This document shows, piece after piece, positions 19,495-21,738 of a stretch of DNA of 64,000 nt; the first letter of the stretch is position 1, and each line of letters begins with the position of its first letter. Position numbers and translations under genes: made by a program. This DNA is from Promethearchaeota archaeon (GTDB lineage Archaea > Asgardarchaeota > Lokiarchaeia > Sigyniarchaeales > SOKP01), in assembly GCA_030599585.1 (NCBI GenBank), contig JAUVNS010000008.1:1-64000 (forward strand). The letters run 5' to 3'. Under the pieces are notes generated by a model that saw only the letters and a list, made by a program, of their open reading frames with translations, ran no database searches and was not told the DNA's origin.

Positions 19495-19878
19495 TTAGTT
19501 ATTTTTTTTTTTTAGGATATTCTTAACATATGCTATAATTTCATTACCAGAAATGGCCTTAACTAAGTAACCATCCGCACCTAATTCCTTACCTTTTTGA
19601 ATGTCCTCAAAAAAATTTTTCACAGAAAACAAAACTACAAGAATTTTTGGATATCTTGCTTTGATCTCCGTTAATATTTCATAGCCGTTCATTCCAGGAA
19701 GCATAATATCAAGCAAAATTAGTGCTATATCGTCATGTTTTTCTTCTACGATATCTAACGCATCGTAACCATTATTACATGTAATTGTTTCGTATTTCTC
19801 CAACTGTAAAAACTTTTCAGTCAGATTTGTAATATCTTCCTCATCATCGACTATTAAAATCTTTTTTACTGCTGACAT
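19495..19878 (-). CDS. Stand-alone response regulator receiver domain
   Basis: ILIVDDE, LLDIMLP (phospho-Asp), GADGYLVK. Confidence 0.93.
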   Translation of the reverse strand: MSAVKKILIVDDEEDITNLTEKFLQLEKYETITCNNGYDALDIVEEKHDDIALILLDIMLPGMNGYEILTEIKARYPKILVVLFSVKNFFEDIQKGKELGADGYLVKAISGNEIIAYVKNILKKKNN

Positions 19879-20113: not shown

Positions 20114-20494
20114 TTAATTATTTAATACTTCCTTTACATAAGATCGAAGTTCGTTTCCTGAAAATGGCTTAGTTACATAACCATCAGCACCTAATTCTGT
20201 GCCTTTTTCTATATCCTCTTTAAAACTCTTAACTGTAAAAAGAATTACTTTAACATCCTTATAAGTATCCTTTGATCTAATGGTTCTAAGGACCTCAAAA
20301 CCTGAGAGCGCGGGCATCATCACATCAAGTAATATTAATAAGATTTCATCATACTTCTCTTCAAGAATCTTTAATGCTTCTTTACCGTTACTACATGTAA
20401 GGGTATTGTAATTATCGAGTTGTAAAAATTTTTGAACGAGACTAACTATATCTGGCTCATCATCACAAATAAGAATAGAATTTTTATCTGACAT
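20114..20494 (-). CDS. Stand-alone response regulator receiver domain (paralog of 19495-19878)
   Basis: ILICDDE, LLDVMMP, GADGYVTKPF. Confidence 0.93.
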   Translation of the reverse strand: MSDKNSILICDDEPDIVSLVQKFLQLDNYNTLTCSNGKEALKILEEKYDEILLILLDVMMPALSGFEVLRTIRSKDTYKDVKVILFTVKSFKEDIEKGTELGADGYVTKPFSGNELRSYVKEVLNN

Positions 20495-20611: not shown

Positions 20612-21271
20612 ATGCCTAAATACGATAGTACTCCGAAGTTCCCTGACTCATATCTTGGGCATAAATCTTTAGACTATGATTCATCAATATGGATGGAGAG
20701 AAATCAAAAAAAAACTACACTCCTCTGTTCACAATATTTGTATGACGAAAGATTAGATGAACTAGAGAAACCGAATTTTTTAAAAGACGAACCTTTTTTC
20801 ATTCTTGATTTAGGCTGTGGAACTGGGTTTTCCACTGAAATTTTATTAGAGTGTGGTTTTAGGGTAATCGGAGTCGATATCCTACACGACATGCTTTCAA
20901 AAGTAAAAACTAAGAAGAATCATATGAAAAACCAAAACAATCTCGAACTACTTTTGGCAGACATAAATTATTTACCCTTAAGAAGTTCTTCAATAAATCA
21001 CGCAATTTCTATCTCAGCCTACAATTTCATCACCCATAGAGCAAAGTCGATTAGAGACAAAACGAAAATTGCAAATAATACTGCAAAGTATTTGTATAAA
21101 TTACTAAAACCAGGTGGAAGAATTATAATTGAATTCTACCCTAAAAACGATCATGAACTGGAAATGTATAGTTCATCTTTTAACAACAATGGGTTTACTG
21201 GGTTTGTCGTCAAACAAAATCCTAATCAAAAATCAGGTCAGACTTTCTTATTACTAAAAAAATGTGATTGA
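20612..21271 (+). CDS. Class I SAM methyltransferase, Bud23/WBSCR22-like SSU rRNA m7G methyltransferase
   Basis: FILDLGCGTG SAM motif plus Bud23-type motifs AISISA, LKPGG...FYPKND and GFTG. Confidence 0.8.
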   Translation: MPKYDSTPKFPDSYLGHKSLDYDSSIWMERNQKKTTLLCSQYLYDERLDELEKPNFLKDEPFFILDLGCGTGFSTEILLECGFRVIGVDILHDMLSKVKTKKNHMKNQNNLELLLADINYLPLRSSSINHAISISAYNFITHRAKSIRDKTKIANNTAKYLYKLLKPGGRIIIEFYPKNDHELEMYSSSFNNNGFTGFVVKQNPNQKSGQTFLLLKKCD

Positions 21272-21273
21272 AT

Positions 21274-21345
21274 ATGGGAATGTGTAAATTTTGCGGCAGA
21301 TTTGAAAAAACAATTTCAAATGTTCTCAGTTTATATAGAAAATAG
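21274..21345 (+). pseudogene. 5' remnant resembling the N-terminus of archaeal PflA-like radical SAM proteins
   Basis: MGMCKFCGRFEKTISNVLSLYRK*, starting 3 bp after the upstream stop; CxxCG...IS.VL pattern then early stop. Confidence 0.4.
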
Positions 21346-21432: not shown

Positions 21433-21738
21433 ATGCAGCAAGCACGAATAAGACTTAGTAGCACTCAATTACCAGCTTTGAAAGCTGTGTGTGACCAAAT
21501 TGAAAGCGTATGCAAGAATCAAGGAATTAGAAAACTAGGCCCTATTCCTTTACCTACAAAAAGATTACGAGTTCCAGTGATGAAAGCACCATCTGGGCAA
21601 GGTACCTCAACTTGGGCAAAATTTGAGATGAGAATTCATAAACGCCTCTTTGAAATAACTGCCAATGAACGATCAATGCACCTTATTATGAAAATTCAAA
21701 TTCCAGAGTCTGTCTTAGTAGAAATTGAGTTAATGTAA
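21433..21738 (+). CDS. rps10: 30S ribosomal protein uS10 (archaeal S10 / eukaryotic S20)
   Basis: ARIRLSS, GPIPLPTKRL, GQGTSTW..FEMRIHKRL, IPESVLVEIEL. Confidence 0.95.
   Translation: MQQARIRLSSTQLPALKAVCDQIESVCKNQGIRKLGPIPLPTKRLRVPVMKAPSGQGTSTWAKFEMRIHKRLFEITANERSMHLIMKIQIPESVLVEIELM

Follow-up and report, generated by a model that had tools for sequence, protein, structure and literature searches.

The window analysed here is a stretch of 64,000 nucleotides, positions 1-64,000 of contig JAUVNS010000008.1 in assembly GCA_030599585.1 of a Promethearchaeota archaeon, a member of the Lokiarchaeia. The gene flagged in it is referred to below as copy B (subfamily B, or 'NF/E' type), and a second copy found elsewhere in the genome as A. 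The features of the B locus are listed below; the SAM-site segments and those with altered residues were placed by alignment.

20612-21271, + strand: Bud23-like methyltransferase, subfamily B, catalytic core only; 219 aa, ATG start
20651-20707, + strand: N-terminal segment Tyr14-Gln32 of B; Tyr14, Tyr22 and Gln32 as in Bud23, Trp27 and Asn31 for Arg27 and Ile31, without Arg-Pro-Glu
20807-20827, + strand: SAM-binding motif I, Asp66-Gly72 of B, intact
20876-20878, + strand: Asp89 of B, intact, equivalent to SAM-site residue Asp77 in yeast and Asp82 in human
20996-20998, + strand: Asn129 of B, at the position of yeast Asp112 and human Asp117 (the Trm112 salt-bridge residue); Asp in 39% of subfamily B
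21008-21028, + strand: Ser133-Phe139 of B; both serines retained, Asn138-Phe139 for Bud23 Gln121-Trp122
21131-21142, + strand: Glu174-Phe-Tyr-Pro177 of B; Tyr-Pro retained, Glu174 for Bud23 Gln157
21274-21345, + strand: relic of a radical-SAM gene, 23 codons and then a stop; the start of a gene that most relatives in this taxonomic family have after B
21433-21738, + strand: ribosomal protein uS10, sole copy in the genome, 161 bases after B and its conserved downstream neighbour

The relic corresponds to the first 23 codons of a radical-SAM gene of ~380 aa with weak AmmeMemoRadiSam/PflA-like matches, and no full copy of that gene was found in the host genome. Divergent from B lie two tandem genes for stand-alone response-regulator receivers (19495-19878 and 20114-20494, both on the - strand); L042 and L043 have a receiver gene at the corresponding position. 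A scan for bacterial-type promoters gave results at chance level.

Pfam and NCBIfam assign B to generic methyltransferase families only, and no NCBIfam equivalog cut-off was reached among the 25 best matches listed. In a PDB sequence search, all five Bud23/WBSCR22 entries came out on top (E 9e-19 to 3e-14), followed by the next methyltransferase at 1.5e-8. Foldseek with the AlphaFold model of B (pLDDT 73) likewise put eight Bud23 chains at the top (E 9e-14 to 9e-13), the next match being Trm11 at 1.4e-9, and the ESM Atlas structure search with the same model recovered eukaryotic Bud23 clusters. In VIA-align over PDB representatives, BUD23 (Z 17.4, rmsd 3.0, 176 aligned) ties with unrelated class I enzymes. 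The closest named relatives of B are proteins of Lokiarchaeota/Promethearchaeota at 82-88% identity, in agreement with the Asgard host proposed in the earlier note, and JGI annotates some close relatives as '18S rRNA (guanine1575-N7)-methyltransferase'.

Yeast Bud23 (PDB 4qtt/4qtu) and human BUD23/WBSCR22 (6g4w, 7wtt) are the methyltransferases that form m7G1575/1639 in 18S rRNA. B is 24-28% identical to them over about 200 columns, belongs to the same clade and shares the class I fold, the SAM site, Tyr14/Tyr22/Gln32, Ser116/Ser118, Tyr159-Pro160 and the C-terminal strands. It differs in having Asn-Phe for Gln121-Trp122, Glu for Gln157 and Asn for Asp112, in lacking Arg-Pro-Glu and the PF12589 tail, and in being a paralogue within a genome that has another copy. 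The earlier note had matched several motifs of this reading frame to yeast Bud23, and these matches hold in a HMMER alignment to PDB 4qtt_B over residues 62-215. The N-terminal Y/Y/Q pattern is real as well, Tyr14, Tyr22 and Gln32 of B being aligned with eukaryotic columns that are 94-98% conserved. One of the motifs in the note agreed as far as ISISA and no further: the next residues are Tyr-Asn-Phe in B but Ile-Gln-Trp in Bud23. The reported lack of the basic C-terminal extension was borne out, as B ends at residue 219 without a match to PF12589, whereas the eukaryotic controls do match that family.

Conservation was scored in an alignment of 200 proteins, whose rows include 52 eukaryotic, 23 Loki-A, 51 other archaeal and 41 B sequences. 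Gln121 and Trp122 (yeast numbering) occur in 100% of the eukaryotic, Loki-A and other archaeal rows; in B rows these positions are Asn (98%) and Phe (100%). Gln157, found in 98-100% of rows outside B, is Glu in 93% of B rows, and subfamily B has also exchanged Arg27 for Trp and lost the Arg-Pro-Glu start. SAM residues are retained in 95-100% of B rows (Gly70 and Asp89 of the window's B match yeast Gly57 and Asp77), the C-terminal family motifs are kept, and Tyr14, Tyr22, Gln32, Ser116, Ser118, Tyr159 and Pro160 are common to B and the Bud23 family. In the work of Letoquart from 2014, the pocket of yeast Bud23 that takes up guanine is reportedly formed by Ile31, Ser118, Trp122 and Tyr159. On that basis, the altered residues of B presumably occupy base-pocket positions; what was tested here is their conservation. 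According to a review, a purine pocket of Bud23 was modelled and then checked by mutation (PMC5372719). A change fixed throughout the subfamily beside an intact SAM site suggests that B has been retained as an active SAM-dependent methyltransferase with a changed target. Judged by its sequence, B is a real Bud23-like protein but an altered paralogue, and it is not filed here as Bud23 proper because three defining features that were tested are absent, namely Gln-Trp/Gln157, Arg-Pro-Glu/Arg27 and the C-terminal extension.

The genome encodes two Bud23 relatives, and the one that scores higher against eukaryotic Bud23 lies on another contig:

L032:5026-5658 (= G000:C24:284025-284657), + strand: copy A, canonical Bud23-like gene, divergent from eS25

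A and B are 30% identical at the protein level. A matches human BUD23 over its full length (E 3e-26) and retains Arg-Pro-Glu, Gln121-Trp122, Gln157 and Asp112, with a tail-less length like that of B. A profile built from 52 eukaryotic Bud23 cores and run over the genome's 33,163 reading frames scored A at 154.5 bits, B at 112.8 and the next frame at 43; with the same profile, B forms score 111-147 bits and 33 generic enzymes 25-71. By these scores both copies are Bud23-like and A is the closer one; of the two, A is the stronger candidate for making m7G. The proposal that B is an m7G1575-type enzyme is left unsupported, because a closer copy exists on contig C24 and B is altered at three residues that are 96-100% conserved elsewhere. 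Both copies are retained together in almost all genomes of the host's order, and B appears to be the product of an old duplication, forming a sister subfamily of Bud23. One genome, 91% complete, has B without A, so B alone could do the canonical job. G170, from the same taxonomic family, 92% complete and in 10 contigs, has neither A nor B when all candidates are scored, which may reflect loss or an assembly gap. In L044:3075-3695(-), A is interrupted by a stop and B is whole, and five more genomes have one stop within the A match. P0142 encodes a protein of 382 aa in which an A-type domain precedes another methyltransferase domain of a different kind.

Phylogenetic trees were inferred with IQ-TREE under LG+C20 from 82 and 45 sequences, with fragments and very gappy rows excluded. 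In the two trees, the archaeal and eukaryotic Bud23 proteins form one clade as opposed to the generic enzymes (support 100/99 and 99/99), and the B clade is recovered at 98/99 and 94/74. The eukaryotic sequences branch with the Gln-Trp forms of archaea and not with B (98/92 and 97/93). The tree was the check named in the earlier note, and it places B with Bud23 at a clade support of 99-100; nesting of B among generic Methyltransf_11/25 enzymes was rejected by the AU test with full-length outgroups (p-AU 0.008), while with truncated outgroups it fell short of significance (p 0.14). The AU test rejected neither a sister relationship of B to eukaryotic Bud23 (p-AU 0.12 and 0.32) nor one to Loki A (p 0.15). 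Judged from these trees, the placement of B in the Bud23 family is firm and the deep branching order inside the family is not.

Among 400 Asgard genomes searched, strong family matches were obtained in nearly all of the 154 genomes of the host's order, in two of three genomes of a Helarchaeota-related family and in three of four Odin-like genomes. One additional genome gave a strong match for B alone; NCBI labels proteins of its lineage as Heimdall- or Hodarchaeota. The Helarchaeota-related single copy L040:3957-4556(+) is the most yeast-like archaeal form in PDB searches (E 8e-34 to yeast Bud23, residues 5-195). In the other 235 Asgard genomes, which lie outside the class, the search did not find the family and gave generic matches only (E 1e-27 or weaker), a result that leaves absence unproven; in a recheck of 13 of those genomes, for which every candidate was scored, nearly all matches ended before the C-terminal motifs. 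Gln-Trp forms also come from Aenigmarchaeota and Micrarchaeota (DPANN), so that the family does occur in Asgard archaea, as the earlier note had it, but is not limited to them.

As to precedence, Van Tran and colleagues found no Bud23 orthologue in archaea generally, and no such m7G in archaeal 16S rRNA (PMC6144793; 2018). Birikmen and colleagues list BUD23 for Asgard in Table S10, where it survives the abundance filter and is lost at the domain-architecture filter, and do not mention Bud23 in the main text (PMC8481954; 2021). With that table and the JGI names on relatives, the family's presence in Asgard is already tabulated. A full-text literature search, which left most subscription papers outside its reach, found no paper on Asgard Bud23 or on two paralogues.

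Gene order was compared across 54 B loci, which are related to each other, so the counts that follow are not independent. The uS10 gene lies downstream of B, on the same strand and within 5 kb, in 43 of the 54; A is directly upstream of B in 13, eS25 belongs to the locus in 13, and uS10 or eS25 is near B in 48, a linkage that spans four taxonomic families. The link to uS10, to which the earlier note had pointed, is conserved among B loci. In the L035 genome, which we take to be that of the cultured organism Promethearchaeum syntrophicum MK-D1, eS25 (divergent), A, B and uS10 stand in a row. A and B were ancestrally adjacent; in the window's taxonomic family the block is split, B remaining beside uS10 and A, now divergent from it, facing eS25. 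In about 33 of the 54 loci a radical-SAM gene comes after B, and in the host the B-uS10 linkage survives the loss of this intervening gene. A marine archaeal contig carries B and then A in tandem. On a JGI contig (P0121, 3300042731), a RIO1 kinase gene is immediately followed by a fusion of the two, whose product of 412 aa has a B domain and then an A domain. Odin-like single Gln-Trp copies (L052:1480-2094(-) and L054:1363-1947(+)) are divergent from uS7. One more archaeal Bud23-like copy sits in an EF2-uS7-uS12 cluster. The neighbours in these loci are small-subunit head proteins and factors, and it is the head region of the small subunit that BUD23 binds (PMC9723619, PMC7758049). B genes outside the host's order are often without ribosomal neighbours, and distant ones have metabolic neighbours.

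Bud23 acts with Trm112, the gene for which was located in the host:

L071:3719-4339 (G000:C11), - strand: Trm112, 207 aa; PF03966 at 32.6 bits (cut-off 22), NF038101 at E 6e-13, under its cut-off

This protein has a long insertion between the two zinc-knuckle halves and is far longer than the 60-aa archaeal form; Trm112-type frames of 207-229 aa recur across the host's order. It was missed by a genome-level PF03966 search and recovered by a motif search and by Pfam run on the protein. Complex prediction scored B with the host Trm112 at 0.90 and a control with an unrelated protein at 0.74; these scores are not counted as evidence here. Asp112 of yeast Bud23, Asn in B, is the residue that forms the salt bridge with Trm112 (PMC4516353). 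Archaeal Trm112 activates Trm11, Mtq2, Trm9 and Hvo_0019 (PMC6144793), which have a class I fold like B but belong to other families and act on other substrates.

The sole 16S gene (L001) has two Gs at 1297-1298, between helix 42 and helix 29, the second of which, at 1298, we take to be the equivalent of yeast G1575. Genomes that lack the family have these Gs too, so the target G does not discriminate, and a comparison of 16S sequences between genomes carrying two copies, one copy or none revealed no feature that tracks the family.

We tentatively favour, at somewhat less than an even chance, a reading in which B attaches to the head of the immature 30S subunit and modifies a purine close to the junction of helices 42 and 29, on a base or atom other than the G1575-equivalent N7, a target that would fit A. 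B would dock on the head as Bud23 does, flip a purine near this junction into its pocket and then methylate it. Because the pocket differs from that of Bud23, the target would most likely be a nucleotide or ring atom other than N7 of 16S 1298. More speculatively, the loss of the tryptophan NH together with the gain of a glutamate might favour an amino-bearing base, for instance the neighbouring adenine. The eukaryotic tail of Bud23 holds helix 18 (PMC9723619); since the C-terminal tail is missing from both copies, neither A nor B is expected to keep helix 18 open in the manner of eukaryotic Bud23. In yeast, the core of the human protein by itself is cytoplasmic and without activity (PMC4516353).

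Alternatively, B itself could make m7G at the 16S equivalent of G1575, redundantly with A or under other conditions, with Asn-Phe and Glu as compensatory changes that keep the specificity for guanine. Glutamate can read N1 and N2 of guanine, the equivalents of Ser118, Tyr159-Pro160, Gln32 and Tyr22 are retained, a B-only genome exists, and a clade of B with eukaryotes was not rejected by the AU test. However, redundancy hardly explains why A and B are kept together across an order, Gln-Trp and Gln157 are maintained by every other family member, archaeal and eukaryotic, and both trees place eukaryotes with the Gln-Trp archaeal forms. We consider this alternative unlikely.

A shift of B to a different substrate, whether tRNA, 23S rRNA, a protein or a small molecule, with the adjacency to uS10 being inherited gene order, seems to us about as unlikely. 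It would accommodate the differences in the pocket and in the RNA-facing N-terminal residues (Trp27 for Arg27, no Arg-Pro-Glu), the metabolic surroundings of distant B genes and the radical-SAM gene that stands between B and uS10 in most relatives, but not as readily a uS10/eS25 linkage that extends over four families and outlasts the loss of the intervening gene in the host, nor the retention of the C-terminal family motifs.

Slightly less likely again, in our view, is a role for B mainly as an assembly factor or partner of A on the pre-30S head, with SAM binding kept and methyl transfer secondary. In yeast and human, catalysis by Bud23 is dispensable and what is needed is that the protein be there (PMC4472018, PMC7758049), and the tandem and fused A-B arrangements and the poorly kept Trm112 salt-bridge Asp of B would fit such a role. 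Yet the SAM site and the altered pocket positions of B are near-invariant, a pattern typical of an enzyme that has a substrate of its own, B is without the helix-18 tail that does the structural job in eukaryotes (PMC9723619), and the A and B genes are apart in the host's taxonomic family. That B is a generic Methyltransf_11/25 protein with a chance likeness to Bud23, as the generic Pfam/NCBIfam assignments and the VIA-align tie might suggest, is scarcely credible in view of the gap of ten orders of magnitude among the PDB sequence matches, and is ruled out by the reciprocal profile (111-147 versus 25-71 bits) together with the p-AU of 0.008.

Extended to the pair, the favoured reading of B as a head-binding methyltransferase with its own target leads to a broader and more doubtful picture. 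Lokiarchaeia and some other archaea may possess a Bud23 module of two enzymes, in some cases fused, from which the P/E-site ridge of the small subunit receives two different methyl groups, A adding the eukaryote-type m7G and B a neighbouring modification so far undescribed in any ribosome; eukaryotes would have kept the A type alone and added the tail, turning it into an assembly checkpoint factor. B resembles A and the single Gln-Trp copies of Hel- and Odinarchaeia and DPANN in family and in lacking the tail, and subfamily B predicts a second specificity on the Bud23 scaffold.

The occurrence of the family in Loki-, Hel- and Odinarchaeia and in DPANN runs against the stated absence of Bud23 from archaea (PMC6144793). 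Its range is patchy, with no match in most other Asgard genomes searched, which calls for caution against describing Bud23 simply as a eukaryotic signature protein. The tail-less archaeal enzymes would represent a natural minimal Bud23, and they raise the question of why the modification is kept when the presence of the protein suffices in yeast and human. The predictions for both A and B could be tested in cultured Promethearchaeum syntrophicum MK-D1.
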